The notes: generated by a model not told the origin, from the letters alone. A stretch of 64,000 nucleotides of DNA from a virus (IMGVR_UViG_3300009514_000017:1-64000); one strand, 5' to 3'; shown: positions 1,133-56,503, counted from the stretch's first letter. Numbers and translations: made by a program.

Positions 1133-1372
1133 ATGATAAATCTAGATTCCTTCGTAGACGAGCTCACCAAGATCTCTGGAGTCCCTGGTAAGGGGATGTT
1201 GGGCAGAGCCATCAAGAGCAGGCTCTTGATTGGTGGAGGTCTGGTTGGCACCGGAGCAGTTGGAGTCAAGGCTGGTGAGAGTGCGCTTGACGATTACAAG
1301 CGTGGCCGAGTCATGCGTAAGCAGCAAGAGATGCAGGAGCGAATGCAGCGGCAGATGGAGAGTTTCCGGTGA
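1133..1372 (+). CDS. small protein with FxDELxKIS N-terminal motif and Gly-rich hydrophobic segment (putative internal head/ejection protein)
   Basis: ATG at 1133 gives MINLDSFVDELTKISG; contains LLIGGGLVGTGAVGV; overlaps the next gene (GTGA). Confidence 0.7.
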   Translation: MINLDSFVDELTKISGVPGKGMLGRAIKSRLLIGGGLVGTGAVGVKAGESALDDYKRGRVMRKQQEMQERMQRQMESFR

Positions 1373-1737
1373 CGCGCTTCGAAGCTTTCGCGGACGAGTT
1401 GAGTAAGATCTCAACCATCAGTCTGTCTGGCATCTCTCCAAACAGTGTGCCCATGCGTCCTCCAGCCATGTCTACGCCGATGTCCAGCCCAACGATGTCG
1501 ATGGCTGCTCCAAAGCCTACGATGTCAATGGCTACCCCTCGTCCTGCCTCTCCTTCCAGTAGAGGTGGCGGCATGGCATCGATGGGGAAGATGGCAACTG
1601 TAACCAGTGCTGGAGCACAACTTCTAGGTTCTCAGAAGGTAGGCCGTTTCCGGAACGTCGCGACTAGCAGGATCGTTGGAAAGCGTGGTTCTACGGTTGA
1701 CGATTTGGTTCCAAAAGTCATGGGAGCAGGTTCATGA
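1369..1737 (+). CDS. low-complexity Met/Ser/Pro-rich protein with FADELSKIS motif
   Basis: MTRFEAFADELSKIS; repeated PTMSM units; coupled to both neighbours by GTGA/ATGA overlaps. Confidence 0.65.
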   Translation: MTRFEAFADELSKISTISLSGISPNSVPMRPPAMSTPMSSPTMSMAAPKPTMSMATPRPASPSSRGGGMASMGKMATVTSAGAQLLGSQKVGRFRNVATSRIVGKRGSTVDDLVPKVMGAGS

Positions 1738-2213
1738 GCAGAGTACATGAGATGATCAAGAAGGCGGCTGAAAGAGGAAAGCAGAAGACTGCTGGTATGG
1801 CCAACAGCGGTGAAGAAGTAGAACAGATGATATGGAAGCGTCGCACACGAGCGCAGACTCGAGGCGAAGCCCAGGGGTTGTTCAGCACGTCTGGTGACAC
1901 GATTGAGCAGGACAGAGCAGATCTGAAGAAGCTGTTTGTCCAGACTGATGGTGCAGAGCTTGGCGCCGGTCTGATGGACCTTCCTGCCGACCTGAAGAAG
2001 GTGTCCCACGTAGCCTCTTTCCTGGACATGGTGGAGAAGAAGGCAGGGCTCACAGAAGCTCAGAGACGCTATCCGGAGTTGCAGAAAGTATCGGAGTATA
2101 CGAGTGGCGGAGCTGAGAGGACTACCAAGACTCAGCCGCCAAAGAAGCGGGATCCAAAGGCAGCATTTGGACCCGGACCCGCCACTGCTCCAATGACAGG
2201 TGGCAGGATCTAG
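1734..2213 (+). CDS. hypothetical protein with K-x-[AS] motifs (putative head protein)
   Basis: ATGA overlap; contains IKKAA, QKTAG, LKKVS, SFLDMVEKKAG, LQKVS. Confidence 0.65.
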   Translation: MSRVHEMIKKAAERGKQKTAGMANSGEEVEQMIWKRRTRAQTRGEAQGLFSTSGDTIEQDRADLKKLFVQTDGAELGAGLMDLPADLKKVSHVASFLDMVEKKAGLTEAQRRYPELQKVSEYTSGGAERTTKTQPPKKRDPKAAFGPGPATAPMTGGRI

Positions 2214-2221
2214 AGGTTGGC

Positions 2222-3094
2222 TTGGATAGCAAGGAGCAAGCCTTCGATGAGATCATGGAGAAGCTGGCTGTTCTGAAGCCCGCTAATAGGCTGCCGTATA
2301 CTCCAGCTCTGCCTGTAATACCTAATGCACACAAACCTCTCGCCTCGATTCAAAAGCGAGAGGTAGCGATGTGGCAGGAAGCCAAGAAGTCGAACTGGGA
2401 TCCCCAATTCACCAAACCGCTGTTGCGCTCTATGGAACCTCTCATTCAGAAGAGGTCCAGCCTGTACAAGAACCGTGGCGTCGAAATCCCACATAAAGCC
2501 GTGGACTTCGAGCATAGACGCCTGGCTCTGGAAGCTATCAAGACCTACGACCCCAACAGAGGAACCAAGCTTGGAACCTGGGTGACTGGAAGATTGAAGA
2601 ACGCTTCCAAGTTCATCGGTCAGAACCAGAACACAGCAAGAATCGTCGACGCCATCTCCGCTAAGATTGGAGACTACCAGCGTTTCAAGTCTGAATTGTC
2701 AGATCAACTAGGTCGTGAACCAACAGCTCAAGAAATCCATGACAACTTGATGAAGATCGACCACGACTTCGAGAGGTTGAGGGGAACCTCTCTTCGTGAA
2801 ATTCATCGTCTGGATAAGGAGCAGCGCAAAGATCTGTTCAGCACTGGGTCTGAAATAAACATGTCGGGTGCAGCGAGAACTCTAGATTACAACAAGGAGT
2901 TGATGCACACGATCATGGATGAATTGACTCCAGAGGAAAAAAAGGTTCATGTCCTGACGATGGGACTGGAAGGAAATCCAAGATTGCCTCCAGGACAGAT
3001 AGCCCGCAGACTCCATATGGACAACTCTAAGGTGTCCAAGATTCGCACCTCCATCCTCAAGAAGATGGAGCCATACAGGGTGGATCTACTCTGA
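2222..3094 (+). CDS. sigma70-family RNA polymerase sigma factor (FliA/SigB-like architecture, divergent)
   Basis: Region 2 LEAIKTYDPNRGTKLGTW (cf. AVxxFDPxRGxKFSTY); region 3 LSDQLGREPTAQEI; region 4 ELTPEEKKVHVLTMGL...PGQIARRLHMDNSKVSKIR. Confidence 0.88.
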   Translation: MDSKEQAFDEIMEKLAVLKPANRLPYTPALPVIPNAHKPLASIQKREVAMWQEAKKSNWDPQFTKPLLRSMEPLIQKRSSLYKNRGVEIPHKAVDFEHRRLALEAIKTYDPNRGTKLGTWVTGRLKNASKFIGQNQNTARIVDAISAKIGDYQRFKSELSDQLGREPTAQEIHDNLMKIDHDFERLRGTSLREIHRLDKEQRKDLFSTGSEINMSGAARTLDYNKELMHTIMDELTPEEKKVHVLTMGLEGNPRLPPGQIARRLHMDNSKVSKIRTSILKKMEPYRVDLL

Positions 3095-3300
3095 TGTCCA
3101 GGACCTCTAGACTGGAAGCGCTGAAGCGAGATGTTAAAGCATACGTTGCTAAAGAGAAAGAGCGGATAGACAAGGACGTTGCGTTCCTTGAAGCGATATT
3201 GAGCAGCAGGACCGGCGGGCGAGGAGTTCAAGCCGTGTCTGAAACCCAAACATCCAATGGAGCGCAGCAAGATCTGGCCTCGTTTTTGAAAGATACGTGA
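3094..3300 (+). CDS. hypothetical protein
   Basis: TGATG coupling to the sigma gene; helical, charged 68 aa. Confidence 0.6.
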   Translation: MSRTSRLEALKRDVKAYVAKEKERIDKDVAFLEAILSSRTGGRGVQAVSETQTSNGAQQDLASFLKDT

Positions 3301-3330
3301 AGTGGGGATGTAGCTTAGAGGTTTAGACCT

Positions 3331-4776: not shown

Positions 4777-5283
4777 TTGGGAACTACAAGATCTTGTGGT
4801 GATTGTGTAGCGTGCTGCGTCTACCCAAGCGTGGACGAAGGTGACGTCAAGCACGAGGCACTGTCACCGTGCCAGAATCTCGTCAATTACAAAAAGCTTG
4901 TTCCTAAGGTAGTAGAGGAGCAGGGACGTTTCCATGGTATGCCCATACTCTCTACGAGAAACTACCGCATTGCCGGAGGGACAAGCTGCCTCATCTACGA
5001 GAACCGACCGTCCTGTTGCAGCGCATACCGATGTGCGTGGATAAACGGCGAGGGAGATGAGGAAGACCGACCGGACAAGTGCGGTGTCGTGGTGGACGAG
5101 ATCAGCCGCACCGGCCCCATCAGGAACGCCTTGATTGCCAAGCCTCTGTGGTTCGGAGCGGAGGATGAGGAAGCGGGGGGTCGTGCGATGGAGCGAATCT
5201 CACGCTCATCCGGCGTACCCTTGCTGGTGTTGCAGTTCACTGAGTTTCGTCTGTTGCGCATCGTCGGCAGAGGAGTCGCGTAG
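4777..5283 (+). CDS. YkgJ/FliB-like CxxCxxCC Fe-S or Zn cysteine-cluster protein
   Basis: CGDCVACC ... CLIYENRPSCCSAYRCAW signature. Confidence 0.75.
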   Translation: MGTTRSCGDCVACCVYPSVDEGDVKHEALSPCQNLVNYKKLVPKVVEEQGRFHGMPILSTRNYRIAGGTSCLIYENRPSCCSAYRCAWINGEGDEEDRPDKCGVVVDEISRTGPIRNALIAKPLWFGAEDEEAGGRAMERISRSSGVPLLVLQFTEFRLLRIVGRGVA

Positions 5284-38987: not shown

Positions 38988-38991
38988 ACCT

Positions 38992-39231: not shown

Positions 39232-39269
39232 GACTCCATCCTTTTCTTAGGACACCCCTCGAGAGTCCA

Positions 39270-39872: not shown

Positions 39873-39874
39873 TT

Positions 39875-42695: not shown

Positions 42696-42939
42696 GTCTT
42701 CTAAACTCCCTGAACCGTATGACGTTCGTCTTTTTCGATTCCACTTTCAACCCAAACAGCATCTTAGGGGCTATGACAACAGAGTAAAAGCATCCAAACC
42801 CTGTCAGCCTAACGTTCCTGTCTCCGTTGTTTAGTGCGGCTCTCACTGTCTTGATGGTAGACAGGAGAACCTTTTTCACATCAGCCCTGGTCAGATTGGA
42901 ATCCCTAGCTACCTCTGCAATCAGATCGGAGAAAGTCAT
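42667..42939 (-). CDS. hup: HU/IHF-like DNA-binding protein
   Basis: MTFSDLIAEVA..LTRADVKKVL...VRLTGFGCF...IRFR; TGATG coupling to polA. Confidence 0.85.
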   Translation of the reverse strand: MTFSDLIAEVARDSNLTRADVKKVLLSTIKTVRAALNNGDRNVRLTGFGCFYSVVIAPKMLFGLKVESKKTNVIRFREFRRHDGKVRSGV

Positions 42940-44978: not shown

Positions 44979-44984
44979 TACCTC

Positions 44985-46340
44985 CTAGTATGGAACGTCC
45001 TCTTCTTCTCCCTCATCGTTGTTACTGAACTGAGGAGGGGGAGAGAACTGAGGGGGAGAGGGGAAGGGAGCCGGCTGTGGTGCGTACCCATTGGTAGGGG
45101 ATGGTCTCTGTGGCTGCTGCGCGTACATCTGCTGCGGAGCCATCTGCTGCCCTTGTGGGAATCCCATAGGCGGTTGACCATAGCCTGGAACCGGGGCTCC
45201 ATACTGTGGTGCCATGTGGGAGAGATTGAGTTCCATCCGATCTGCGTGTGCCTTTGGGTCTAGCGGCTTGTGGATTTCGCGGAAGTCGAACGGCTCTGCC
45301 GTCAACTCCTCCAATCTCTGCTGAAGAGTCTGTTCGTGTAGCAGGGCCGGGTTGACCCTCTTCGAGAACTCCTCTACGGACTCGAACTTGCTGAGGACCA
45401 TGTGACTGTTGGTTCCCTCACCCTGACGCAGACCGTGCAGGACTACGTCAAACATCGACTGAGAGGTTCCGGTCTGATTGCAGGATGAACAGACCGAGTA
45501 CTCCTTCAGTGCAACCATTGTCCGACAGGTTGGGCATGGATGCCTCTGAACGACGATCTTTGCCAGTTCATCATCCGATCCCGGATACGTCGCTGCATCG
45601 ATGATCGCGGTGTTGCAGGTGGGGCAATAGAAGCAGACTGCCTTAACTTCACCACCACACTGACAACGAGTTGATACGAGCTGGTCCCACGCTTCTAGGT
45701 CTGCAAGGTGACCACTCCCGATCTCGAAGTAGCGCTTCTTCCCCAGCACGTCCACCACGCTGTCTCCGTAGTTCGGCCAGTATTCTCCCTGCTGTAGGTT
45801 GGCCGGTGGGTGACCAGCCCTGACTCGGCAGAAGTTGCAGGCTCTGCCAACACACTCGTCATCCACCATGACGAATTCATTGGTCTCCTTCTTCTGCACC
45901 CACTGATTGTCCTTGGTTCCCCACAGAGGGTGCCGGTGATAGATCCCGAGGTGAGCCACAGTGAAGTAGAACTTGTCCTTCAGGTTGATGGTCTTGTCAC
46001 CCTGGTCCATGTGCATGCAGGACAGGCAGGGCTGTGGATTGTATGGGTCGGTTCCTGCGGAGCACGGAACATCTCTGAACTTGACCTGACTGATCTTGCG
46101 AGTGTGGGTCGGTATCCGACAGAACGGTAGCCTCACGTCCTTTGGCTGCCCGGTGGCTGGGTCTAGCTCCACCAGGTCCGGAGACGGGTTCGTCTCCACG
46201 TAATCACCATTCACGATGATGATCGGAGTAGGGCTCGAGGGTAGACGCAGGCGGTCCCTCCAACTCCCATACTTCTTCTTCCTGCCACCAGCGGCATTGA
46301 TGGCACGAGCGCCTCTCCGGAAGTTACTTGTTAGGGACAT
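44985..46340 (-). CDS. putative single-stranded DNA-binding protein with multiple Zn-finger motifs
   Basis: Lies between primase and polymerase; acidic C-terminal tail EGEEEDVPY resembles SSB DDIPF tails; many CxxC pairs; P/Q linker. Confidence 0.55.
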   Translation of the reverse strand: MSLTSNFRRGARAINAAGGRKKKYGSWRDRLRLPSSPTPIIIVNGDYVETNPSPDLVELDPATGQPKDVRLPFCRIPTHTRKISQVKFRDVPCSAGTDPYNPQPCLSCMHMDQGDKTINLKDKFYFTVAHLGIYHRHPLWGTKDNQWVQKKETNEFVMVDDECVGRACNFCRVRAGHPPANLQQGEYWPNYGDSVVDVLGKKRYFEIGSGHLADLEAWDQLVSTRCQCGGEVKAVCFYCPTCNTAIIDAATYPGSDDELAKIVVQRHPCPTCRTMVALKEYSVCSSCNQTGTSQSMFDVVLHGLRQGEGTNSHMVLSKFESVEEFSKRVNPALLHEQTLQQRLEELTAEPFDFREIHKPLDPKAHADRMELNLSHMAPQYGAPVPGYGQPPMGFPQGQQMAPQQMYAQQPQRPSPTNGYAPQPAPFPSPPQFSPPPQFSNNDEGEEEDVPY

Positions 46341-47424
46341 ACAGTTTTCCTCTCTTCCTCATTACTGCGTTCAAGTGCTCTATGTACAACATGGAACTTA
46401 TAACGAACTCGCGAATGCCTTCTGGCTCGTAGTCGTCTGGTTGAGTGTTGGAGTCATCCTCAGGATACTGCATGACCATGACCTTGCCTCTCGACACCTC
46501 CCATAGTTGATCTCCTATGGTGAGTGCAGCCTCTATTCCGGCGCTGTCGTTGTCTAGACAGAGGACGAAGGTAACTCCCAATCTCTCCAGTATTCGTTTC
46601 TGGTAGCGCGTCAAGGAGCTCCCCATGAGTGCCACAGTGTTTGAGAACCCAGACTGAATCATCCACAGGCATGCCTTGAACCCTTCGGTGATGAAGAGCG
46701 TACCCTGCCCGTCGGACATCCCAACTAGGCTTGGATAGATGCGGTTCAAGTTCCAGATATACTTACGGTTTTCCAGGTGGTAGGTCGGGAACATCTCATC
46801 GAACCAGCTCCCATAGTCACTTGGGATGACAGTTCCATCTCGTCGTTTTCTGCACCCTTCGTAGACGTGGTACTTGGGTTGCTGGCTGCTGATGGTTGCG
46901 CCACCTGAATATCCGACCAAGCCGCCGTACACATCCCTGATTGGATACATGATTCTTTGGCGTTTCTTGTCGTACCCAATCTCCATGTCGGCCAAGAGTT
47001 GAGTATCAAACCCTTTCTCTGTCAGGGCGGTGGGTGTGTGGTCGTATACACCCACCAGTGCTTCCGGTAGAACTACGTCCGCCTTGTAGGGATCTTTGTC
47101 AGAGAAGAAATGCTTTTCTGTGAAGTCGTGTATCTGACGATTGCGATCCAGTACAGGCTGGATGGTGCTCGTCTCTGCATCAATGATGTGCCTAGCAACT
47201 CCAAGGAGCCGCAGCAGTCGTTTGATGTCTCCGCCCTTGGAGGCTGGACATCCTTCCGTGAAGCAGTGGAATAGTCCCTTCTCGAGGTTGACTGAGAATG
47301 ACGGTCTATTCTCGGACCCACCCTTGTGAAACGGGCACTTCGTCAGGACGTTCCCCATCATCCCGCCACGGAAGTGCGACGTAGGCATGTACTTCTGAAT
47401 GAGTGACAGAACCTCCTGCTGCAT
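46324..47424 (-). CDS. dnaG: DNA primase (CHC2 Zn finger plus Toprim)
   Basis: CPFH..PSFSVN..FHCFTEGC; YPIRD..G.LVGYSG; ITEG; LCLDNDSAG. Confidence 0.9.
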   Translation of the reverse strand: MQQEVLSLIQKYMPTSHFRGGMMGNVLTKCPFHKGGSENRPSFSVNLEKGLFHCFTEGCPASKGGDIKRLLRLLGVARHIIDAETSTIQPVLDRNRQIHDFTEKHFFSDKDPYKADVVLPEALVGVYDHTPTALTEKGFDTQLLADMEIGYDKKRQRIMYPIRDVYGGLVGYSGGATISSQQPKYHVYEGCRKRRDGTVIPSDYGSWFDEMFPTYHLENRKYIWNLNRIYPSLVGMSDGQGTLFITEGFKACLWMIQSGFSNTVALMGSSLTRYQKRILERLGVTFVLCLDNDSAGIEAALTIGDQLWEVSRGKVMVMQYPEDDSNTQPDDYEPEGIREFVISSMLYIEHLNAVMRKRGKLYVPNK

Positions 47425-47443
47425 TAGTCTTCCTCATGGATGA

Positions 47444-48838
47444 CTACCTTCGACCAAACTGTGGTGGTGGAATATGTGCTGGCAGGTTGTTGGACCCGCC
47501 GGGCAAGTTTCCACTGGTCTTCTGTTGCTTCTTCTTCTCACCATACTCACGCATCTCTTCAACGCTGGAGTAGGACTTGATGAAGCTGAAGTCAGTCGAT
47601 GGAATTGCGTTTATGATGAACCCGTCTATGTCGGTCTCACGAGTTCCAGGCATACCAACGATGATCTCATTGGCATGAGTTTCAGGATTCTTGACCTTGT
47701 TGATTTTGTAGACAACGTCTGCATCTTGGCCAAGAGCATCTGCATATCCAATCTCGGTCAGGTCTTCACCACGAGATCCTTGACTACCTCTGTTCGCCTG
47801 AGTGATCCCAACCACTGGGATGCTGAAGTCTCTGGCTAGACCTTTCGCATCCTGTGAGATGTTGGTGATGTTCTTCCAATCCACGGACTTGGTCTTAGAT
47901 CTGTCGTCCTTCATCAGGTAGAGGCCATCGATGAACACGATGTCTGGGTCCAGCTCTTCTATCTTTGATCGAATCCACGACATCCCACCACCATCTGCTA
48001 CTCCCCTATCCGACAACAGAATGAGGAATGGGCGTTTGATCCCATAATAGGATGCTGCTTCCTCGTCCTCTTTCAAACTGGAAGCCATTGTCCACACATA
48101 GTTGAGGATGTGCGGTTGCAGTTGACCCTTCTTGAACGCCGAGTAATCAACACGAGCGAGAAGAGTGATGATCCTGCGTCTGAGTGCAGCAACACTCATC
48201 TCTCTGGAGAAGAAGATCACTCTCTTCCTGGCCATCGTGTAACAGAAGGTCGCCATCATAAGGGCAACCCAAGTCTTCATGCTCTTAGGTCGTCCGAAGA
48301 TGACGATGAACTCTTCCGGGTTCATCCCTAGTAGTTCCTGGTTCAACACGTCCCACGGATAAGGGATGCCGGTTATTCCACCACCAACTACTATATCTTC
48401 ATACTCTTCGCGGATGCTTTGGTATGCATCAGCCATGGACAGGTCTTCACCGCTTGTGTAGGACCTGTTGATAGAGAGGACTCTCTCCCTCGCTATCTCA
48501 AGAAGTTCTTGTGGATCTCCACTAGCCCCGGTTATCAACTCCTGTCCGAGGTTGTACAGATCAATCTTCTGTTTTTCTCTGCGAATGTGGTCACAGAGAA
48601 CCGGAACCGAGTCTGGTGCGTACATCAACTGGAAGGATGGAAACGTTTGTCTCAGCATGTCGATGCTGGGAACTTGTCCAGATGTTGCTGGAGATCTATA
48701 AATCCTTCTCAGGTGCCTGTAGATCTCTTTGGCTTCCGCTGATGAGAAGAAGTCCTCGTCGATCTTCGCCCTGTCCAGTGACCGGAAATCCGAATCTTGT
48801 ATAACCCTCGAGATGAGGGCGAATTCGATATTGCTCAC
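47444..48838 (-). CDS. dnaB: DnaB-like replicative helicase (SF4)
   Basis: GIPYPW..LN..L.G; Walker A GRPKSMKT; FSREMS; Walker B VFIDGLYLM; QANR; QDAD. Confidence 0.9.
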   Translation of the reverse strand: MSNIEFALISRVIQDSDFRSLDRAKIDEDFFSSAEAKEIYRHLRRIYRSPATSGQVPSIDMLRQTFPSFQLMYAPDSVPVLCDHIRREKQKIDLYNLGQELITGASGDPQELLEIARERVLSINRSYTSGEDLSMADAYQSIREEYEDIVVGGGITGIPYPWDVLNQELLGMNPEEFIVIFGRPKSMKTWVALMMATFCYTMARKRVIFFSREMSVAALRRRIITLLARVDYSAFKKGQLQPHILNYVWTMASSLKEDEEAASYYGIKRPFLILLSDRGVADGGGMSWIRSKIEELDPDIVFIDGLYLMKDDRSKTKSVDWKNITNISQDAKGLARDFSIPVVGITQANRGSQGSRGEDLTEIGYADALGQDADVVYKINKVKNPETHANEIIVGMPGTRETDIDGFIINAIPSTDFSFIKSYSSVEEMREYGEKKKQQKTSGNLPGGSNNLPAHIPPPQFGRR

Positions 48839-48921
48839 ATTCCTCCCGTCTCAGGGTGTGTTGAGCATCTCATAACACTCTGGGTCGTACCTTGTCTCAG
48901 ATTTTGGTTGGTTCTTGAAGG

Positions 48922-49248
48922 TCAAAGACTGGGGATACCATCACTAGAGCCGTCGTTCAGTTCGGACTCTAGTCCTTGTGGTCTAACAACCAGCTCACCA
49001 ACGGACACGAACAGGTCAGCAGCTATGTCCAATTCCATAGATCTGACTAGCTCGCTCATGATCTCCAGAGTTCTATCACTCCACCCGACCAGCCTTGTGT
49101 TTGGGCCAACTCGGATGTGTGATTCCTCGTTCTGATCTGATGCTAGATAGTAGGTAGACCCGAGGCTGAACGCCTCGCTGTTGAGTTGTGAAAACGTGAT
49201 GTTGGCTATCGACACGTTCGTGAGCTTGCATCCAGAGCCTGGAGTCAT
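48922..49248 (-). CDS. hypothetical protein
   Basis: AGGAG upstream; on the operon strand. Confidence 0.6.
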   Translation of the reverse strand: MTPGSGCKLTNVSIANITFSQLNSEAFSLGSTYYLASDQNEESHIRVGPNTRLVGWSDRTLEIMSELVRSMELDIAADLFVSVGELVVRPQGLESELNDGSSDGIPSL

Positions 49249-49256
49249 GTTCTCTC

Positions 49257-49637
49257 CTAGAACTTGTAGGCGTCGGGACGACCGCGCTGAGCCAGCATCT
49301 GTCTCAGCTGACTCTCTGCTTCTTCAAATGCCTGCTGCGCTAAGGCCCCAGCATAGTACTTGACCAGGGTCGCAGCCTGCTGGAATGAGGAATCGTCTTC
49401 GTCTCCTTCGTTGCATGCAGCAGACACAGTGAAGGAACCAGATACTCCTGTACCAAAGTCCTTCATGCTGAAGTCCTTTGTAGAAGAAACTCGTAGCTGT
49501 GCGTTTCCGATCAACGGCTGAAATCGTGACATCATTTCCTCGTCAGGTTGCTGGTCGATAGCAAATGGATACATCTCATCACCGAGGATGATCTGCACCC
49601 TGCCAGAAATTCTTGGCTCAACCAGGATAGCGTCCAC
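49257..49637 (-). CDS. hypothetical protein
   Basis: TAGTG coupling to the upstream gene. Confidence 0.6.
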   Translation of the reverse strand: MDAILVEPRISGRVQIILGDEMYPFAIDQQPDEEMMSRFQPLIGNAQLRVSSTKDFSMKDFGTGVSGSFTVSAACNEGDEDDSSFQQAATLVKYYAGALAQQAFEEAESQLRQMLAQRGRPDAYKF

Positions 49638-50239
49638 TACTTGATCTCACCAAGAAATAGAACTGGCCTAGCTCCAGATACGACAGCCGTGGATTCCATC
49701 TCGTCGTAGGCTTCATCAATCACTTTCTCGAGGTTGTGCTCCTCCAGCCAGACCAGAACGTTCGGGAAGTCGATGTTCCACTCGTATGAAACCAGGGACT
49801 TTTCATTCCCGCTCTTGTCATAGGTCTTCAGTGCCATGAGCTCATCGAGCTTGCCCAATTTGCGCAGCTCATCGAACAACTCGTCTGAAGAGAACCGCCT
49901 CTTGGTTCTTGACTCCACTTTCAGAGTTCCTACCGTGAGCCTGGTAGCGTTTCCTCTAGGTCCCCGAAGGTTATCCGGGTCCAGCTTGATGGCATCTCTC
50001 AGCTTGATTTTAGCTTTAGCCAACTCACCGTTTCGCCGCTCTACCAATCTGGCAATGTGGTCAAGCGCAAGGACGTGCTGAGACATCAAGTGATTGATGT
50101 CTGGCATGGTGTTCCAAGCAGGTATCAAGTATCTACCGGTCTTGAACTCTTCGATGAAATCCTTCATCTCCTGGTCTGCATCCTCGAATGCAGCAACAGC
50201 TATTTCATGTTCCTTCTGTTCAATTATAGGCTGTTCCAT
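49637..50239 (-). CDS. hypothetical protein
   Basis: 200 aa, charged, on the operon strand. Confidence 0.65.
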   Translation of the reverse strand: MEQPIIEQKEHEIAVAAFEDADQEMKDFIEEFKTGRYLIPAWNTMPDINHLMSQHVLALDHIARLVERRNGELAKAKIKLRDAIKLDPDNLRGPRGNATRLTVGTLKVESRTKRRFSSDELFDELRKLGKLDELMALKTYDKSGNEKSLVSYEWNIDFPNVLVWLEEHNLEKVIDEAYDEMESTAVVSGARPVLFLGEIK

Positions 50240-51059
50240 CTACCATCCTGATTGGCATTGGGGTGCCAAAGTGTTGGTAACGAATTACATCTACTATAGT
50301 CATTGCACTCCTCCACTCGTCTATGGTGGAGGTCCAAGCACCTTCTTTCCTGTTCCAGTCTGCAACTCTGAGCAGGTAGGCTGGGTGGAATGTGGCCATC
50401 ACTGGGTATATGATGGGTGCAATGTTTCCACGAATCTCGACCTCGAAGATCTGACCGTGCTTCTTGGTGATCTCCATCTTCTTTCCCGTCAGCGTTTCCA
50501 ATGCGACCTTGCCTGACGAGATGATCAGTATCGGATCAACGATGTAGATCAAATTCCTGACCCGCTCCCAACAAGCCTTGGCCCAGGCAGCTACCGGTGT
50601 GACGTTGTCTTCTGGACGACATGCCACGATGTTGGTCACGAAGAATTGTTCTCTTCGATACTCGAACATCTTCTCGTGGAAATGAGTCTCGGCTTGACGA
50701 GACGCTCGCTTCATTGGCTTGAACCACTTCCACAACTCCTGGATGCCAGAGTCGTCTGAGGTCATGGCTATGAGCTTGTTCATCAGCCGACCAGAATCTC
50801 CAACGAAAGGGATTCCCGTCTGGTCTTCCACTTCTCCAGGAGCTTCACCGATGATCATTACGTCGGCGTCTGGGTTACCGTCAGCAAACACAATTCCGTG
50901 TTCGCGCTGCTGGTGCAGTGGACATGCCATGCAGTTTTCCCACTGCGAGTACAACTCCTGTAGCTGTTGTGCCTTGTCACCGCTGAAGATTCCCAATGGG
51001 AGTCCGTCGTACTTCTTCGCCTTCAGCTTTCTTGGGCTTCTGGTTTTAGCTGTTGTCAT
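50220..51059 (-). CDS. udg: uracil-DNA glycosylase family 4 (Fe-S)
   Basis: CMACPLH..VFADGNPDADVMIIGEAPG..ED..G.PFVG.SG..TNIVACRP..HPAYLLR. Confidence 0.93.
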   Translation of the reverse strand: MTTAKTRSPRKLKAKKYDGLPLGIFSGDKAQQLQELYSQWENCMACPLHQQREHGIVFADGNPDADVMIIGEAPGEVEDQTGIPFVGDSGRLMNKLIAMTSDDSGIQELWKWFKPMKRASRQAETHFHEKMFEYRREQFFVTNIVACRPEDNVTPVAAWAKACWERVRNLIYIVDPILIISSGKVALETLTGKKMEITKKHGQIFEVEIRGNIAPIIYPVMATFHPAYLLRVADWNRKEGAWTSTIDEWRSAMTIVDVIRYQHFGTPMPIRMVDGTAYN

Positions 51060-51521
51060 TCAACCTCTCGTTCCCACCCTCGGTGGTAGGGTGAGACCAG
51101 CGTTAACCGCAGATCTCATCTTCTTATCCTCGAAATACTGGATGAGATTGACGGCCAACTTCATCTGGTTCTCAGAGCTGAGACTAGTCGCCCACTGCGC
51201 AGCGACCGGAGCTATCTGTACAACCTCGTCATCTATGAATGCCAGGCTCATAGTGACAGCAGTCTCTATCATGCCCTCCGGACGCATCTGCCTAAGTATT
51301 GAGAACCTGATGGGGTTCTTCAGATCGATGGCCTGACCAGCGAGTGAAGCCGAACGCTCCACTTGCATAACCTCTCCTATCAAGAAATCACTCCCATTGA
51401 AGTACGCGATTATAACTCGGCTGAAGTTGCAACCGTAGTCGCAGCTGAGAGTTTCAATTAGCTCTTTAACCCTCCTCATCTCTGAGATCTTGTTCTGATA
51501 GTCTTCTGAGCTCATCGTCAT
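51060..51521 (-). CDS. hypothetical protein
   Basis: On the operon strand between the helicase and UDG; start uncertain. Confidence 0.6.
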   Translation of the reverse strand: MTMSSEDYQNKISEMRRVKELIETLSCDYGCNFSRVIIAYFNGSDFLIGEVMQVERSASLAGQAIDLKNPIRFSILRQMRPEGMIETAVTMSLAFIDDEVVQIAPVAAQWATSLSSENQMKLAVNLIQYFEDKKMRSAVNAGLTLPPRVGTRG

Positions 51522-52935
51522 ACAATCCTTGTAGTTCTGGGGGTAGTGTTTGAGGTTGTATAGAAGGATTCACTTGGTTGAATGTGTACCCCCAATGCTT
51601 CAGATCTCTTCTGACTGACTGACACATACGTTTCAAGGTAGGCATGGTCCAGTCTTCGAAGATTACGAAGATGGGGTTGGGTTTGCCAGGCAGGAATCTC
51701 TGTATCCTGCCCATTGACTGCTGAAGAGACGTCTTGGCTTTGAATGGTGTCAACCAGAACAACAGATCTAGCTCGTCATCATCTACGCCTTGAGATCCTA
51801 GTCTCGAGATGGCAAAGCACACTCGACTGTTCCGAAGCACGTCTGTTCTCTCATGCTTCGGAGTTTCCTGAATGATGATCCCAGACTCCGGGAATATGGC
51901 GTGCATCAATTTCAACTGCGCTTTGGAGTGAGATAGGCAGAGAACCTTCCTGCCCTGATCCAACGCTGTCTTGATGTGCCAATAGCGGTAGATGTTGCTG
52001 GTTAAGTCCACCCCTAGTGCGCTTCGGACGAGTGAGATGTTTCTCGTTGCTCCGATCAGACCGACGTTCGGATCCAACATGACTGGGGTGCGCTGGAAGA
52101 AGATGTCTGGAATTAGATCTTGAGTCAGGTCCGTGTAGAACGGGAGACCGATGTTGCTGGTATAGATTGGATCTAGTCCATCTTCTCTCTTGACTGTTGC
52201 TGTTAGCCCAATTCGGTTTCCAAAGAACGGTGGTGCGGTCAGGCTGAACTTCGGAGCACCAATCTGGTGAACTTCATCGTAGACGATCAGTCCGTAGTAG
52301 CGGAACATCTCTTCTGGAACTTCCCCCTTTTCTATCTTCTGCCAGAGCGTGGTGACCAAAGCTATGACTAAGGGTTTTTGCCACTCGAACTTCTTCCCAC
52401 TGATGATCCCGACACGACCCTTGAAGTTCAACCCTGGATCTTGCTCTCTCCCCTCGGTGTCGTCACCATAGATCGCACGCTCCCATTGGTCCATGATCCC
52501 CCCATCAGGAACAACGACTAGGGTTGGGGCTCCAACCTGTGCTATTTTCTTCAGTGCTAACTTAGTTTTGCCTTTCCCACAAGCCAGATTGAAGATGCCG
52601 TTGTCGTGAGTAGCTAGTGCCTGCCACGCCTTCTCCTGATCTTCGTTTCGAGGGATAACAAGATCTTGGAACTCGACTTTTTGGAATGTAGGACGTAGAT
52701 CTACAAACTCGAAATCGTATTTGGGGTAGTCAGCAACTGATACGAATTCTCTAGGAGTGATAATGTGGTGCTCGGATTCCTCCCAGAGATGTATTACTAT
52801 CTGTCCATCAGGAGTTGGGACCGAGAACTCGAGCGCAGACTTCACCCAGTGAGGTCTGATGTGCCTCTTTGGTAGCCACAATCTATTGGAGATGTAGGCT
52901 TTATCAGGGTCCTTGCGGTAGAACTCCAGATTCAT
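51466..52935 (-). CDS. superfamily 2 DNA helicase (UvsW/XPB-like)
   Basis: LACGKGKT, DEVH, GLTAT, QSMGRIQR. Confidence 0.9.
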   Translation of the reverse strand: MNLEFYRKDPDKAYISNRLWLPKRHIRPHWVKSALEFSVPTPDGQIVIHLWEESEHHIITPREFVSVADYPKYDFEFVDLRPTFQKVEFQDLVIPRNEDQEKAWQALATHDNGIFNLACGKGKTKLALKKIAQVGAPTLVVVPDGGIMDQWERAIYGDDTEGREQDPGLNFKGRVGIISGKKFEWQKPLVIALVTTLWQKIEKGEVPEEMFRYYGLIVYDEVHQIGAPKFSLTAPPFFGNRIGLTATVKREDGLDPIYTSNIGLPFYTDLTQDLIPDIFFQRTPVMLDPNVGLIGATRNISLVRSALGVDLTSNIYRYWHIKTALDQGRKVLCLSHSKAQLKLMHAIFPESGIIIQETPKHERTDVLRNSRVCFAISRLGSQGVDDDELDLLFWLTPFKAKTSLQQSMGRIQRFLPGKPNPIFVIFEDWTMPTLKRMCQSVRRDLKHWGYTFNQVNPSIQPQTLPPELQGLYDDELRRLSEQDLRDEEG

Positions 52936-52970
52936 TGAACCTCCAACACTCCCCCCCGGAGTGTCGGACT

Positions 52971-53534
52971 CTACTTCTTGGGGATGACAACTGCTGGAAA
53001 CAGGGTCGCCTGCCTGAATGCTAGCAGGGCTTGTTCACAGATGGCTTCTCCAACTCTCAGGGCGATGTTCTTAGAAACCCTAGCCATGAACGTCTCACCC
53101 TGAAACTGCGGCCGGAAGGGTGGAGGAACAGAATAGATGGCATGAAACATCGGATCTTGTACCGACCCGTAAATCCCGATGCCTCCACCGTATGGAGGCT
53201 GGACTCCGGGCATCGCACCGAAGTTCTGAGTTGGAACCGGCTGTAGGCGGTTCGGAATCTGGACCGGGACCATCTGGCCATACTGCTGCTGTGGCGCTAC
53301 AGGAGGCGCTCTGTATGGTGCAGGTGGAGCGTACAGAGGTAGCCTCCGTTGCTGAGGAGGCTGTGGAGCTATGGGAGATGGTGCGGGTCGAAATGCCTGT
53401 GATTGGTACATGGATTCCTGTACCTTCGCGCGGCATTCCGAGTTTACGTCACAACTCTCACACACTCGGGAATCATTCTCGTATGATCCCCAACACTGTG
53501 GTCTTTCAGCGGTTTGGTACTTCCAGTTCGGCAT
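52971..53534 (-). CDS. Cys4 plus Pro/Gln-rich protein, first gene of the replication block
   Basis: ATG at 53534 after AAAGGAG; CWG..CESC...C followed by P/Q/Y-rich low complexity. Confidence 0.7.
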   Translation of the reverse strand: MPNWKYQTAERPQCWGSYENDSRVCESCDVNSECRAKVQESMYQSQAFRPAPSPIAPQPPQQRRLPLYAPPAPYRAPPVAPQQQYGQMVPVQIPNRLQPVPTQNFGAMPGVQPPYGGGIGIYGSVQDPMFHAIYSVPPPFRPQFQGETFMARVSKNIALRVGEAICEQALLAFRQATLFPAVVIPKK

Positions 53535-53564
53535 GACTCTCCTTTCGGTTGCTAATCTGCCCAC

Positions 53565-53661: not shown

Positions 53662-54795
53662 ATGGCTCATGTCCTGGAGATCAAGATGAAAACTGCCGGT
53701 GTTGTGTTCGACTTCTACGATGACCCTTCCGGAGAGATTCTGAAGACGGCTTTCCCTACTCAGGAAGCACTACCAGGTTTGATCAAGACGGCGCATATCC
53801 TCAACGATATGGAGAGGAAGGTTCTTAGAGACGAAGCTTACGCGCTCGTGTTTGAAAACGATGGAGTTACTCTTCGCAAGTTTGCCTGTATAGACCCAGG
53901 AAACACCCTGATGTCAGCTGTCTATTTTGAGAAGACGGCTTACAAGCTTCCAGAGGAGCTTAGAGAAGAGGCTCGGACCAAGATAGCTTCGAGGCTGAAG
54001 GAGTTCTTTCCGCCAGATCCACTGGACAAGCTGGCAGTTCATCTTGGGATGTCAAAGAAGCGCGACCCAAGGAAGATGAAGGACGACAACTCTGGCCAGA
54101 AAGATTGGGAGGATAGGACAAATATGGTTCAGGGGTTCGTTGAGGGAGATGATTCTCCTGGTGCAGCTCAGACCAAGACTTCTATGCCGGTAGCATACGA
54201 TGAGGTTAAGGCAGCGGTTCAGTATTTCAATGATCTGTGGCCAGAGATGTCACCGCTACAGAGGCATGAGTTCGCAGAGAAGACTGCATCTCGAGCTGAT
54301 GAGCTAGGCATCGAGGTTTCTGACAGGATGCGTAGGTATGGGTCTACATCTTACGCAGAAGATGTAGACGATCACCTGACGTCCCGCGCAGCCCATGCTC
54401 CTGTATACAAGGAGGTGTATGCCTCCTTGAAGGAGAAGAGGGCCAGTCTGGAGCCAGAGGAGTTTGCAGTTCTGCTTCAGACGGCTGACGACTCCGCAGA
54501 CCTAGTTCGGTTCTACGGCGGTGTTATTCAAGACCCGTACTTCTCGACCTTTGGATACGTTGACAAGCTGGCATCTTGGTCATGGACTGGCCCGACCGGG
54601 GACCATGTGAACTCCGAACAGTTGGATCGTCTGGCGCGCAATGCCAGGCCGCTGCTGAAGAAGCACTTCAGTGACGAAATGGTAGATGAGTTTTGTAAGA
54701 GCCCGGTCGAGATCTTCGAGTCTCTTCCAGATGACATGAAGATCATCTTGTCCAGGTTGGGGAGTGACGAGTTCACCAACTTCGGTGAGAACTGA
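53662..54795 (+). CDS. putative head/scaffold-type protein with repeated K-x-A motifs
   Basis: MKTAG, IKTAH, EKTAY, TKIAS, DKLAV, EKTAS, EKRAS, DKLAS; upstream of portal. Confidence 0.65.
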   Translation: MAHVLEIKMKTAGVVFDFYDDPSGEILKTAFPTQEALPGLIKTAHILNDMERKVLRDEAYALVFENDGVTLRKFACIDPGNTLMSAVYFEKTAYKLPEELREEARTKIASRLKEFFPPDPLDKLAVHLGMSKKRDPRKMKDDNSGQKDWEDRTNMVQGFVEGDDSPGAAQTKTSMPVAYDEVKAAVQYFNDLWPEMSPLQRHEFAEKTASRADELGIEVSDRMRRYGSTSYAEDVDDHLTSRAAHAPVYKEVYASLKEKRASLEPEEFAVLLQTADDSADLVRFYGGVIQDPYFSTFGYVDKLASWSWTGPTGDHVNSEQLDRLARNARPLLKKHFSDEMVDEFCKSPVEIFESLPDDMKIILSRLGSDEFTNFGEN

Positions 54796-54796
54796 T

Positions 54797-55030
54797 ATGG
54801 AGACTGTATCTCTCCACTCTTTTGCAGATGAGCTTCAGCAGATCTTGGAGAAGGATGCGGGACTCAAGGATTTTTTCATCCGAAAGGTTGCACCTGAGTC
54901 CAGCAAGAGGTTAGCTAGAACAAAAGTCGTATCAAACATCACTGGAGCTTTTCCTAGATCAGTCAAGCCGGTTAAACCGATAGACATGGGTGATACGTGG
55001 TTGGCAAAAGCTGGACTTCGACCTGCGTAG
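54797..55030 (+). CDS. small protein with SFADEL..EKDAG motif
   Basis: ATG at 54797, 1 nt after the previous stop; METVSLHSFADELQQILEKDAG. Confidence 0.65.
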   Translation: METVSLHSFADELQQILEKDAGLKDFFIRKVAPESSKRLARTKVVSNITGAFPRSVKPVKPIDMGDTWLAKAGLRPA

Positions 55031-55037
55031 GTAGTCT

Positions 55038-55970
55038 ATGAACCAGCCAGAGATCGAATTCTACAAGCGCTTGACTGAATTCGTTCCGACTGCTCCTACT
55101 GAAGGCAGTCCTGTAGAGGAACGTTTCAAGGCTGTTCCAGATTACAAGATCCCAGTTAGCCCTAAGAACCTCTTCACTCATCAGGAAATCCACCCCATCG
55201 TTCTAGACCTATCTCTACTAAAGGCTTTCGGTGAGGAGTGGTACTACTGGGAAGTTCCGACTCTGTGGAAGTCCATCCACGACGAGTTCAAGTCCAAGGT
55301 GTCGGAGTCGAACAGAGCCAAGATCAACGCTGTAAGAACTGCAAGAATCACCACCCTACCGTGGGATAGCTGGCACGTTTTCGAGAATGTGGTACTAGCA
55401 CTAGATGGATTTGTTCCACGGTGGGACATCCTACAGAAAGTAGATCTTGAGTCACTGTTCGTAGGAGTGGACATCCTGGAGCAGATCAGACCTGAGGACT
55501 ATTCGGAAGATGTCCGCAACTACATAGCTGCTGTCTTCTTGGATGATGATGTCTTCTTCACCCCTCCACCACTAGAGTTTTCACAGGCAGAAGTCTCGCA
55601 GCCCTATTACCTTTGCAAGGATTGTGGAAATGAGGAGTGGGCGCTACATCACGATGGCATCTGCTCCGTGTGCTCTGGTAGATACGATCCAGAGAACGGT
55701 TTGTCGATGCGGCCTTCCCAAGAAGCCATAGACAAGAAGCTCGGGCAGAACACCGTGTTACGATACAAGTTCGACCCTGGGCCTGAGCAGAGAGTCTGGG
55801 ATCTAGTGGCCAGGTCCAAGAATGAGCAGTCGATTTTGAAGGTGGCTGGTCCAGCAGAGATAGGTGTGTCAAAGCTGCTGGATGCTAGAGACCTCATGAA
55901 CATCAGGCGCAGACAGCTCAAGAACCAGCTGACCGCTCTCAAGTCTTGGCTGAACTCGAGGTCTTCATGA
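55038..55970 (+). CDS. hypothetical protein with Zn ribbon
   Basis: CKDCG...CSVCSG. Confidence 0.7.
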   Translation: MNQPEIEFYKRLTEFVPTAPTEGSPVEERFKAVPDYKIPVSPKNLFTHQEIHPIVLDLSLLKAFGEEWYYWEVPTLWKSIHDEFKSKVSESNRAKINAVRTARITTLPWDSWHVFENVVLALDGFVPRWDILQKVDLESLFVGVDILEQIRPEDYSEDVRNYIAAVFLDDDVFFTPPPLEFSQAEVSQPYYLCKDCGNEEWALHHDGICSVCSGRYDPENGLSMRPSQEAIDKKLGQNTVLRYKFDPGPEQRVWDLVARSKNEQSILKVAGPAEIGVSKLLDARDLMNIRRRQLKNQLTALKSWLNSRSS

Positions 55971-56503
55971 TTGATTATTCAGCCTTCACTGATGAGCTGG
56001 AGAAGATTGGTGGAGTAGGAACCTTTCTTCAGAAACAGATCAAAAACGTTGGCAACACGATTAATGACTTTGCTAATCCCATAAAATCCATGAAGGCTGG
56101 ATGGGAGTCTGGTGCTGCCGGTAGATCGTTTGGTGGATGGGGCGGTAAGCTACTGACAGACAAAAATAAGCCGTCGTTCTGGCGTCATCTACCTGTAGGA
56201 CCCAAGGCTCAGATAACAGGCTTTACTGCACTTGAAGCTCCAGGCGCCCTCGCCAAAGAAGACCCTAGTGGCGAGGGGCGATCTCGTCTGCGTCGTGTAT
56301 CTGGAACCCTTGGTGGGACCGGAGGTTTTTTGGTCGGTGGTAGACATGGACTCCTTGGCTCTCTGGTTGGTGGAGCCATTGGCCAGAAGATGTTGAGTGG
56401 GTCTGTAGGATTAGGGGAGAGCACTGTAGAAGCTGTCAAGCAACTCAAACGTCAGAGAAAGTTTAATGCATTGAATACAACGCAGACCCCCGTGGGGCCG
56501 TAA
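55967..56503 (+). CDS. glycine-zipper protein with AFTDELEKIG motif (putative ejection/membrane-channel protein)
   Basis: ATGA overlap; GTLGGTGGFLVGG..GLLGSLVGGAIG. Confidence 0.65.
   Translation: MIDYSAFTDELEKIGGVGTFLQKQIKNVGNTINDFANPIKSMKAGWESGAAGRSFGGWGGKLLTDKNKPSFWRHLPVGPKAQITGFTALEAPGALAKEDPSGEGRSRLRRVSGTLGGTGGFLVGGRHGLLGSLVGGAIGQKMLSGSVGLGESTVEAVKQLKRQRKFNALNTTQTPVGP

Follow-up and report, generated by a model that had tools for sequence, protein, structure and literature searches.

An N-terminal decapeptide common to unrelated proteins of an uncultured jumbo phage: a candidate capsid-targeting propeptide

In phage T4, the internal proteins IPI to IPIII, Alt, and gp24 carry a capsid-targeting sequence (CTS) that is removed by the prohead protease gp21 (Mullaney and Black 1996, as cited in PMC5694885). 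The related proteases of phiKZ (gp175) and SPN3US (gp245) cleave numerous head proteins at a short motif and process themselves C-terminally, and the propeptides of phiKZ-like phages, with the motif S/A/G-x-E or A-x-E, are thought to act in the manner of the CTS (PMC5694885, PMC10052503). Virion preparations of Salmonella phage Arash (OQ632216) contained RNA polymerase (RNAP) beta and beta', sigma, helicase, pyrophosphatase, phosphoesterase, and RNA ligases; mass spectrometry reported 116 proteins, and the authors allow for carry-over of abundant enzymes (PMC10585845).

Here, we describe a decapeptide, [AGS]-F-x-D-E-L-x-K-I-[AGS], at the N-termini of unrelated phage proteins. The window is a 64,000-nucleotide stretch of a 75,790-bp contig, itself a 40% fragment of an uncultured jumbo phage genome of about 200 kb (~197 kb). 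Using the strict pattern [SAT]F.DE[LI].[KQ][IL] on the six-frame translation of the entire contig, we found five matches where 0.003 would be expected by chance (maximum 1 in 300 residue shuffles). All five lie on the + strand with a start codon 4 to 7 residues before them. The copies are as follows, with scores against an 18-column tag profile.

1133 to 1372, + strand: 79-aa Gly-rich basic protein; SFVDELTKIS at nt 1148 to 1177, residues 6 to 15 (21.5 bits); no family from Pfam and PHROG searches
1369 to 1737, + strand: 122-aa Pro/Ser/Met-rich protein with a GTG start; AFADELSKIS at nt 1384 to 1413 (18.8 bits); no family from Pfam and PHROG searches
54797 to 55030, + strand: 77-aa protein; SFADELQQIL at nt 54818 to 54847 (17.9 bits), a variant in which Q replaces K and L replaces A
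55967 to 56503, + strand: 178-aa Gly-zipper protein; AFTDELEKIG at nt 55982 to 56011 (26.9 bits); its stop overlaps the start of the portal gene
73088, past the window: a further tag
75027, + strand, past the window: SFVDELEKIA (19.4 bits)
75761 to 75790, past the window: a sixth copy, MIPISFVDEL, cut off by the contig end
Past the window, same contig: LigD-like ligase (PE+ligase) with a partial C-terminal copy, GFVDELQKEI followed by the stop (13.7 bits)

All six peptides named in the original prediction were recovered in place, and four of them (1148, 1384, 54818, and 55982) are clear copies of a nearly identical N-terminal peptide at 17.9 to 26.9 bits. Nucleotide identity among the copies is only 53 to 77% with synonymous differences present, which argues for selection on the peptide and not for a DNA repeat. 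Further genes of the contig are listed below.

3 to 1067, + strand: C-terminal third of a protein of ~1060 aa whose earlier part is lost at the contig start
1734 to 2213, + strand: 159-aa protein with a conserved site-type motif, P-E-L-Q-K-V-S, at nt 2076 to 2093
2222 to 3094, + strand: sigma-70-family factor (phrog_351)
42510 to 42695, - strand: 61-aa zinc-ribbon protein belonging to the replication block; its N-terminus is weakly tag-like (MMEKYGVEFDDELVKQAEKLG / EFDDELVKQAEKLG)
53662 to 54795, + strand: 377-aa protein encoded upstream of the portal block and carrying the site-type motifs LDKLA (nt 54025 to 54036) and VDKLA (nt 54562 to 54573), two where 0.14 are expected
56503 to 58509, + strand: portal protein (phrog_16240)
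59748 to 64000 in the window, ending at nt 68636, + strand: fused RNAP beta-beta' open reading frame (ORF) of 2,962 aa

The sigma N-terminus had been counted as a tag copy, but AFDEIMEKLAV scores only 0.8 bits and shares just E-K-L-A with the tag. What it has is only the short site-type motif M-E-K-L-A (nt 2258 to 2269), and the sigma N-termini of close relatives retain W-[VA]-L-x-K-[LI]-[SA]-A. Similarly, the internal SFLDMVEKKAG of ORF 1734 (nt 2016 to 2048), proposed as a variant, scores 2.7 bits and is not conserved in the homologue from the complete relative G002, which keeps PELRKVA instead. The statement that the replication block is free of tags holds for full tags; the one tag-like item in that block, the peptide on the zinc-ribbon protein, scores a nonsignificant 3.4 to 4.2 bits. 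The two tagged loci do lie far apart, and the contig is not circular; ORF 3 to 1067, whose homologues in complete relatives are open frames of 1,025 to 1,103 aa, is not a continuation of the copy at the contig end. The portal is 33% identical to that of phage Arash and to those of Vibrio phages and also matches Bacillus phage G, with 1,583 relatives. The fused RNAP, homologous to the subunits present in Arash virion preparations, is without the tag, so the tag cannot account for all presumed cargo.

Unrelated proteins of hundreds of relatives also begin with the tag. At a threshold of 9 bits, the profile gave 162 matches in 162 related loci (2.57 Mb), nearly all of them N-terminal: about 130 of 141 unique tag contexts lie 12 or fewer residues from a start, at distances ranging from 1 to 12 codons. 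The residues right after the tag are small (A/G/S). The tags had been said to lie all on the structural strand. This is true within the contig and for 161 of the 162 matches, which share a strand with whichever gene, portal or capsid, was used to orient the locus; the one remaining match is a real G002 gene on the opposite strand. A few tags instead lie inside a protein where two modules meet, for instance at the ORF 72695/LigD junction.

As had been claimed, the tagged proteins are otherwise unrelated, their bodies falling into at least 20 unrelated sequence clusters. Pfam searches on 58 of them identified four SNF2 helicases, an inorganic pyrophosphatase (InPase, 1e-45), NUDIX (5e-12), GNAT, glyoxalase, Peptidase_C92/NlpC-P60, Zn_peptidase_2, Gly-zipper, and zinc ribbons, and one tagged protein had a weak PARP/Tpt1-like match. 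Most are small, Gly-rich, and basic and are encoded beside portal and scaffold genes; several contain Gly-zipper or hydrophobic stretches. Their description as virion-region proteins was nonetheless too narrow, since tagged genes are scattered over the relatives' ~197-kb genomes and include nucleic acid enzymes. The most conserved tagged family is that of the portal-adjacent ORF 55967 (34 members in 80 portal loci). In its alignment the tag is nearly invariant at a mean column identity of 20%, so that the tag is more strongly constrained than the protein body, and it is still present where portal identity is as low as 43%. The exact 9-mer F.DELEKIA is also common in cellular proteins as an internal helix motif, with 83 in-frame copies across 120 genome loci, and thus the sequence alone is not diagnostic. 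The amphipathic helix of the original prediction is likewise predicted here, from a hydrophobic moment of 0.49 to 0.63 (0.28 for shuffles) and from an AF2 model of the ORF 55967 protein in which residues 5 to 28 are helical at low to moderate confidence.

A targeting peptide of the T4 kind would be expected to come with a head protease. Complete relatives encode a protein whose predicted fold is that of T4 gp21: residues 49 to 232 of a 526-aa protein of G002 match 5jbl_A (Z 8.8, rmsd 3.2, 134 residues), with the next match at 5.3 and herpesvirus proteases at 4.1 to 4.5. H109, H110, and S166 are invariant in its family. The modeled fold and the conserved Ser and His place it among the gp21/herpesvirus assemblin-like prohead proteases. 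The Pfam family PF03420 found no match in five genomes, and control genomes were equally silent.

The second half of the tag, [LI]-E-K-[ILV]-A, recurs in the relatives' scaffold-like proteins, capsid protein, and 526-aa protein. In the capsid protein and in five head-module families, the motif [EQD]-K-[ILV]-[ASG] is enriched 5 to 20 times relative to shuffles, with the caveat that homologues in this count are not independent observations, and permuted control motifs are at or below expectation. In G002, seven consecutive head genes hold 18 sites versus 1.6 expected, with only background levels elsewhere in the genome. The only invariant residues in the disordered N-terminus and linker of the protease are those of the motif, E28/K29 and K282/A284. 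In contrast, the invariant F-x-D-E half of the tag is missing from scaffold sites. Because this 40% fragment does not include the genes for capsid, scaffold, and protease, their connection to the tag comes from relatives with 43 to 66% portal identity.

The analysis shows that the tag exists, sits at N-termini, is conserved and portable, and has a K-centered motif in common with head-assembly proteins, and that relatives have the protease fold; docking, cleavage, the cut position, and packaging are inferred. On balance, we lean toward the decapeptide being a T4-CTS-like capsid-targeting propeptide that holds the protease site. The tag would fold as a short amphipathic helix at the cargo's extreme N-terminus, occasionally between two modules, and dock the cargo to the scaffolding core or to the inside of the prohead as it assembles. 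The second half of the tag, [LI]-[EQ]-K-[ILV]-[AS], would be what the gp21-like prohead protease of the clade recognizes, and this protease may also process the scaffold-like proteins, itself, and perhaps the N-terminus of the capsid protein. The freed cargo would remain in the head and be delivered along with the DNA; candidates are the small Gly-rich basic proteins, SNF2 helicase, pyrophosphatase, NUDIX, acetyltransferase, NlpC/P60-type amidase, and LigD-like ligase. The portable capsid-targeting and maturation tag of the original prediction is thus favored in part, by the indirect evidence of conservation, portability, the gp21-fold protease, the shared K-[ILV]-[ASG], the predicted amphipathic helix, and the enzymes in Arash virion preparations, and loses its sigma and ORF 1734 copies.

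The K-centered half common to scaffold-like proteins, protease linkers, and the capsid protein could also belong to a decapeptide that does no more than offer the prohead protease its optimal recognition sequence, with targeting left to other parts of the protein and removal serving as activation or trimming. The tags between two modules, including the ORF 72695/LigD junction, look polyprotein-like, and the A/G/S residues after the tag are as found at linkers. We consider this unlikely, as the cargo bodies, many of them tiny or disordered, are not related to one another and offer no other common targeting element, and the additional F-x-D-E half is not found in scaffold sites. The ligase's C-terminal copy retains F-V-D-E-L-Q-K without the I-[AS] part. 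Trimming 10 to 20 residues off dozens of unrelated proteins would also serve no obvious end unless the peptide acted first; by the logic of the T4 CTS, removing a short N-terminal peptide is sensible only if it acted beforehand (PMC5694885). The motif enrichment in scaffolds could, conversely, reflect a docking element instead of a cleavage site. Tag and scaffold motif would then bind the capsid shell, portal, or scaffold and be retained on the mature protein, much as the cargo-loading peptides of encapsulins do, or the helix with which a scaffold binds the coat. The predicted amphipathic helix, the repeated motif in scaffold-like proteins as possible coat-binding elements, the partial C-terminal copy, and the position of the best-conserved tagged gene next to the portal gene all fit. 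Still, such an uncleaved helix seems improbable: the motif sits in the disordered flanks of the protease domain, where the gp21-type proteases of T4, phiKZ, and SPN3US self-process (PMC5694885), and its distribution over scaffold, protease, capsid N-terminus, and cargo N-termini corresponds to the T4 substrate list.

Many tagged enzymes (SNF2 helicase, NUDIX, pyrophosphatase, and ligase) act on nucleic acids or nucleotides, and recruitment to another hub would fit too, be it the phage RNAP/sigma or a replication-repair factory, as would a mark for a modifying enzyme. A related motif on the sigma N-terminus and the spread of tagged genes over the genome agree with this. However, the shorter motif is concentrated solely in the head-assembly module, the tagged proteins are mostly small, Gly-rich, and basic and encoded beside portal and scaffold genes, and Arash virion preparations report the same enzyme classes, which makes a role away from the head very unlikely. 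Finally, the constant nearness of the tag to start codons might suggest a nucleic acid-level signal, such as a translation enhancer or repeat, and the Gly-zipper or hydrophobic stretches of several tagged proteins a secretion or membrane-targeting signal. We give these almost no weight. The copies are only 53 to 77% identical in nucleotides, with synonymous changes and start distances of 1 to 12 codons; the peptide is acidic and amphipathic without a hydrophobic core; and the cargo includes cytoplasmic nucleic acid enzymes. A Sec/Tat-type signal peptide was rejected, there being no positive n-region followed by a hydrophobic h-region.

Returning to the capsid-targeting propeptide, the tag may mark the phage's injected proteins. 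A bolder version, which we regard as possible but doubtful, is that it is a sufficient, transferable address label, the reader being a scaffold or gp21-fold protease of new, Lys-centered specificity. If so, every tagged protein would be packed in the head and injected alongside RNAP and sigma: SNF2 helicases, pyrophosphatase, NUDIX, acetyltransferase, NlpC/P60-type amidase, LigD-like ligase, and kinase-like and ART-like proteins. Sequence would then directly reveal the full set of enzymes injected by a large uncultured jumbo phage clade, and foreign proteins could be loaded into capsids by means of the tag.

Several known systems resemble this arrangement in part. Encapsulin cargo-loading peptides are usually C-terminal and uncleaved and fit into a pocket that the HK97-fold shell protein has on its inner face. 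They are also short terminal peptides on unrelated enzymes, directing them inside such a shell, but they differ in sequence, and the tag here is N-terminal and occurs with portal, scaffold, and protease. The Dar anti-restriction proteins of phage P1 are packaged in the head, injected, and protect the DNA. They are a precedent for large enzymes, including a helicase-domain protein, being built into a capsid; the P1 head lineage is unrelated, and we know of no common short tag of this kind on Dar proteins. Arash, although only distantly related, is the nearest cultured relative: its portal is the 33% identical one, its capsid protein, its protease gp222, and its RNAP beta and beta' are homologous, and portal and RNAP are syntenic. 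Sites of the LEKVA/VEKLA type occur in gp225 and in the protease, and no full tag was present in the ~70 kb examined. The phiKZ-like phages are likewise jumbo phages whose heads hold many ejection proteins and a virion RNAP, but most of their propeptides exceed 100 residues and do not amount to one common tag, and their RNAP is of the split type, whereas the one here is fused beta-beta' with a sigma factor.

The closest parallel is T4. The tag has no sequence similarity to the T4 CTS (MKTYQEFIAE) and is far more uniform, extending throughout an uncultured clade in which portal identity falls to 43%. Its site is the Lys-centered [LI]-E-K-[ILV]-A, as opposed to Leu/Ile-x-Glu with the cut after Glu in T4 (PMC5694885). 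Packaging and cleavage, established in T4, are proposed for the tag here. The two systems nevertheless share a 10- to 20-residue N-terminal peptide common to unrelated proteins of one phage, a gp21-fold protease in the head module (predicted in complete relatives such as G002), and a short motif within the peptide that is repeated in scaffold/core proteins, protease, and capsid protein. Both also have enzymes as likely cargo, T4 Alt being an ADP-ribosyltransferase and one tagged protein here having the weak PARP/Tpt1-like match.

Each peptide that the original prediction quoted as a copy of a shared N-terminal tag was found in place in the window. Over its entire length of 75,790 bp, the contig has five matches to the strict pattern [SAT]F.DE[LI].[KQ][IL] in six-frame translation, against an average of 0.003 expected from residue shuffling of the six frames. 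All five matches are on the plus strand, 4 to 7 residues past a start codon, and a sixth copy, MIPISFVDEL, is interrupted by the contig end. Nucleotide identity among the copies was only 53 to 77%, with synonymous differences among them, which implies that the peptide is conserved and is not a DNA repeat. This synonymous variation, together with the variable distance from the start, ruled out a DNA repeat or a translation signal as the origin of the tag. We scored the copies against an 18-column profile derived from 53 tags of relatives. Scores of the four window copies ranged from 17.9 to 26.9 bits, confirming them as tags. Two other peptides put forward as variants are not tags: the score was 0.8 bits for the N terminus of the sigma factor and 2.7 bits for the internal peptide of the open reading frame (ORF) at 1734 to 2213. 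The tagged proteins of the window are small and glycine-rich, proline-rich, or basic; no Pfam or PHROG family was found for any of them or for most structural genes. The features of the contig used here are as follows (contig numbering; the window ends at 64,000).

1148, plus strand, tag copy
1384, plus strand, tag copy
1734-2213, plus strand, ORF with the internal peptide
2222-3094, plus strand, sigma factor
4777-5283, cysteine-rich 168-aa protein with a weak CxxCxxCC (zinc/iron-chelating) match
31782-36308, 1508-aa protein with tail-spike PHROG matches
36593-53564, minus strand, replication and recombination block
39875-40939, minus strand, Cas4-domain exonuclease of that block
41207-42523, minus strand, UvsX-like recombinase of that block
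54818, plus strand, tag copy
55982, plus strand, tag copy
56503-58509, portal protein, 668 aa
59748-64000 and on to 68636 (the latter part as L001:1-5636), 3' of the portal, fused RNA polymerase beta-beta' in a single 2962-aa ORF
72695-73135, 146-aa glycine-zipper ORF ending in the tag VDYTAFTNELYEIVG
73171-74553, LigD-like phosphoesterase-ligase (Pfam)
75027, plus strand, tag copy

The record is a linear fragment with a completeness estimate of 40%, collinear with 12.9 to 80.6 kb of the relative G002. G002 and three other relatives (G001, G006, and G008) are complete genomes of 197 to 210 kb with terminal repeats. We considered a circular junction, in which the tag at the contig end would run into the ORF at 3 to 1067. 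The junction was ruled out, because this ORF is just the C-terminal third of a protein of ~1060 aa and lies on a linear record that is 40% complete. With the contig not being circular, the tagged loci are truly distant from each other, as first proposed. The portal shares 33% identity with its counterparts in Salmonella phage Arash, a distant cultured relative, and in some Vibrio phages; the portal of Bacillus phage G is more distantly related. The polymerase ORF has an NADFDGD motif and an intein insertion bearing LAGLIDADG-type motifs, and it is homologous to Arash gp206 and gp216; no tag was found on it. Most of the giant plus-strand ORFs (1309, 1633, and 1396 aa) matched no family.

Single-protein searches for related loci with the portal and with the sigma factor gave no matches, and loci of relatives were gathered with an alignment of portal homologues. 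Metagenomes contain over 1,500 relatives of the portal, many of them encoded on contigs of 170 to 210 kb. In 80 loci around portal homologues, all tag matches of at least 8 bits were on the portal strand. At 10 bits or more there were 66 matches, which formed at least 20 unrelated clusters; the gene directly upstream of the portal made up the largest. Across 162 loci (2.57 Mb), 162 profile matches of at least 9 bits represented 141 unique contexts, ~130 of which were within 12 residues of a start. The resulting logo was [AGS]-F-x-D-E-L-x-K-I-[AGS], with E at 100% and F, D, L, K, and I each at 90% or more, values that are partly circular because the seeds were picked by a pattern. The flanks are variable, with small residues after the tag. 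The complete genome of G002 had eight matches of at least 9 bits, dispersed over positions 13.7, 61.7, 63.1, 90.0, 110.4, 141.9 (other strand), 156.4, and 157.8 kb; the next score down was 4.5 bits. Genomes with portal identities of 49% and 43% retained four to eight N-terminal tags. The end of the tag varies in distant sub-clades, with K-[EQT]-[AS] in place of K-I-A.

We also scanned IMG/VR with the back-translated 9-mer F.DELEKIA, obtaining 117 stretches, and examined 80 loci of these. Exact in-frame copies in viral contigs were strictly N-terminal in 57 of 76 cases, whereas only 11 of 83 in-frame copies in cellular genomes were N-terminal; the rest were mostly an internal helix motif in unrelated proteins. 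The 9-mer alone is not diagnostic. Thus, what is distinctive is its recurrent N-terminal use within one phage clade and not the sequence itself. Many Nostoc assemblies (L336, L340, L341, L345, L353, L356, L366, L400, L403, L409, and L410) had a short repeated ORF fragment, ...FFDELEKIAVDKDILSV..., which is likely to be a repeat or small gene specific to Nostoc, with no connection to the phage tag.

A Pfam run on 58 tagged proteins from relatives identified four SNF2 helicases, an inorganic pyrophosphatase (1e-45), a NUDIX hydrolase (5e-12), a GNAT acetyltransferase, a glyoxalase fold, a Peptidase_C92/NlpC-P60 amidase, a zinc metallopeptidase, a glycine zipper, and zinc ribbons. Two neighboring tagged proteins of G002 (L097:4377-5153 and L097:5739-6626; 156.4 to 158.6 kb) gave sub-threshold hints of a PARP/Tpt1-like fold with a SWIM finger and of a protein kinase. 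This pair may be injected modifying enzymes, reminiscent of T4 Alt.

The glycine-zipper ORF appears to end in a C-terminal tag at 73088, with the ligase following in another frame. However, PLSDFAPGLPSK, located 5' of the annotated ligase ATG and in the ligase frame, matches the N termini of ligase homologues in G005 and G006, and a one-base shift at the G5 run at nt 73122 separates the tag-end frame from the ligase frame. Both observations speak against a true C-terminal copy, and the apparent one is probably the ligase's own N-terminal tag. The frame change between them could be a sequencing error, a real frameshift, or decay. Joined, the two ORFs (L001:9695-11553; contig 72695-74553) would encode a glycine zipper-tag-ligase polyprotein. 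Some tags in relatives are also internal, between two modules (L006 at ~2566, L018 at ~9494, L177, L145, and L132). They follow a zinc-ribbon domain, a "YPIHDESHARNALAR" domain, or an "MPxWIHxRAxHI" domain and precede a second module, an arrangement suggestive of natural fusions resembling polyproteins, with the tag as the boundary.

Since the head module lies outside this fragment, we read it in G002, at 82 to 94 kb. Its genes, in order, are as follows.

Large terminase
Three genes of unknown function
526-aa protein, homologue of Arash gp222
Acidic 300-aa protein
Tagged small protein
K/E-rich 355- and 120-aa proteins
162-aa protein
Capsid protein (L093:16237-17361), homologue of Arash gp226 (E 3e-38), with a weak match to phage G gp27

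AlphaFold predicted a confident domain at residues 41 to 231 of the 526-aa protein. By structure, this domain matched the T4 prohead protease gp21 (Z 8.8, rmsd 3.2 Å over 134 residues); the next unrelated match had a Z of 5.3, and herpesvirus proteases had Z values of 4.1 to 4.5. H109, H110, and S166 were invariant in 22 homologues. phmmer returned no PDB match for this protease. Searches of five genomes with PF05065 and PF03420 found nothing, the control for PF03420 being silent as well.

The Lys-centered half of the tag, [EQD]-K-[ILV]-[ASG], occurred at 5 to 20 times the shuffled expectation in five head-module families and the capsid protein; three permuted control patterns were at or under expectation. 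In G002, seven consecutive head genes held 18 sites versus 1.6 expected, with the remaining genome at background. The site logo in the scaffold-like proteins was [LI]-E-K-[LVI]-A-[SAE]-A. In the protease, the sole invariant residues of the disordered N terminus (E28 and K29) and of the disordered linker past the catalytic domain (K282 and A284) are all part of this short motif. That linker is the self-processing site of the gp21-type proteases of T4, phiKZ, and SPN3US (PMC5694885). In Arash gp222, LEKVA (residues ~217 to 221) and VEKLA (residues ~255 to 259) occupy the corresponding position, gp222 and gp225 each have two L/V-E-K-[VL]-A sites (L082/L083), and gp218 begins with MNFSQMALEKLNAAS. 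This implies that the Lys-centered motif may predate the full tag, which was not found in the ~70 kb of Arash examined. In close relatives, the N terminus of the sigma orthologues reads W-[VA]-L-x-K-[LI]-[SA]-A and so has the short motif without the rest of the tag. The capsid N terminus is strongly conserved in G002 and 80 homologues (L100-L179) as MSVPARVLNDLFxxK[LV]xTxEGKEKIAE[YF]GG. Its LNDLFxxK[LV] was rejected as a tag due to different spacing. The E-K-I-A motif at residues ~23 to 27 could be a maturation site or a structural N-arm; we left the conserved GKEKIAE out of the evidence for cleavage, as it may be purely structural.

We lean toward the decapeptide being a capsid-targeting propeptide of the T4 kind that contains a protease site. 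The carriers of the short motif (scaffold-like proteins, protease, capsid N terminus, and cargo N termini) correspond in kind to the T4 gp21 substrates, so we read the decapeptide as a two-part signal. F-x-D-E-L would form a cargo-specific amphipathic helix, and the second part would be the recognition motif of the head protease. The hydrophobic moment of the tag was 0.49 to 0.63 versus 0.28 for shuffles, and the tag was predicted to be helical with low to moderate confidence. The ligase C terminus, GFVDELQKEI (13.7 bits against the tag profile), fits the two-part reading, since it keeps the first part and lacks I-[AS]. The cut could fall inside K-[ILV]-[AS] or past it, or else it could follow the invariant Glu, the residue after which known gp21-type enzymes cut.

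That the tag is a pure cleavage site seems unlikely to us. The site-type motif does recur through the head genes, but dozens of unrelated proteins would have little reason to carry a short propeptide unless the tag acts before it is removed, as we propose. A docking helix that stays uncleaved would share the predicted amphipathic character; we consider this improbable. A complex prediction with the capsid protein, the protease domain, and the first 45 residues of a tagged protein, run without controls, scored 0.00 and is taken as evidence neither for nor against binding. Recruitment to a hub outside the head would also place one peptide on unrelated enzymes; with the short motif at background outside the head genes of G002, we regard it as very improbable.

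If the targeting-and-removal reading holds, a ten-residue peptide would mark packaged and injected proteins from sequence alone in a widespread, uncultured group of ~200-kb phages, and it is short and uniform enough for trial as a portable label for packaging. Nucleic acid enzymes (helicases, ligase, NUDIX, and pyrophosphatase) are unusually abundant in the predicted cargo, beside a virion-type RNA polymerase and sigma factor, and such a phage would carry much of its own early machinery. The head protease would be a gp21-type enzyme with a Lys-centered recognition motif, in contrast to the Glu-specific sites of T4 and phiKZ-like phages. A literature search for the tag motif strings found no paper in the library covered.

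Arash virion preparations contained RNA polymerase beta and beta', sigma, helicase, pyrophosphatase, phosphoesterase, and RNA ligases, according to a protein list that is permissive (PMC10585845). Packaged enzymes are thus plausible for this lineage. The tag differs from the T4 capsid targeting sequence (CTS) in having no sequence likeness to it, and its motif is Lys-centered, whereas T4 cuts after Glu. In T4, internal proteins and Alt enter the scaffolding core by means of an N-terminal CTS of 10 to 20 residues, which gp21 then removes (PMC5694885). Like that system, the one described here has an N-terminal peptide common to unrelated proteins, a protease with the gp21 fold (read in the genomes of relatives and not in this fragment), and a motif common to scaffold, protease, and capsid proteins.
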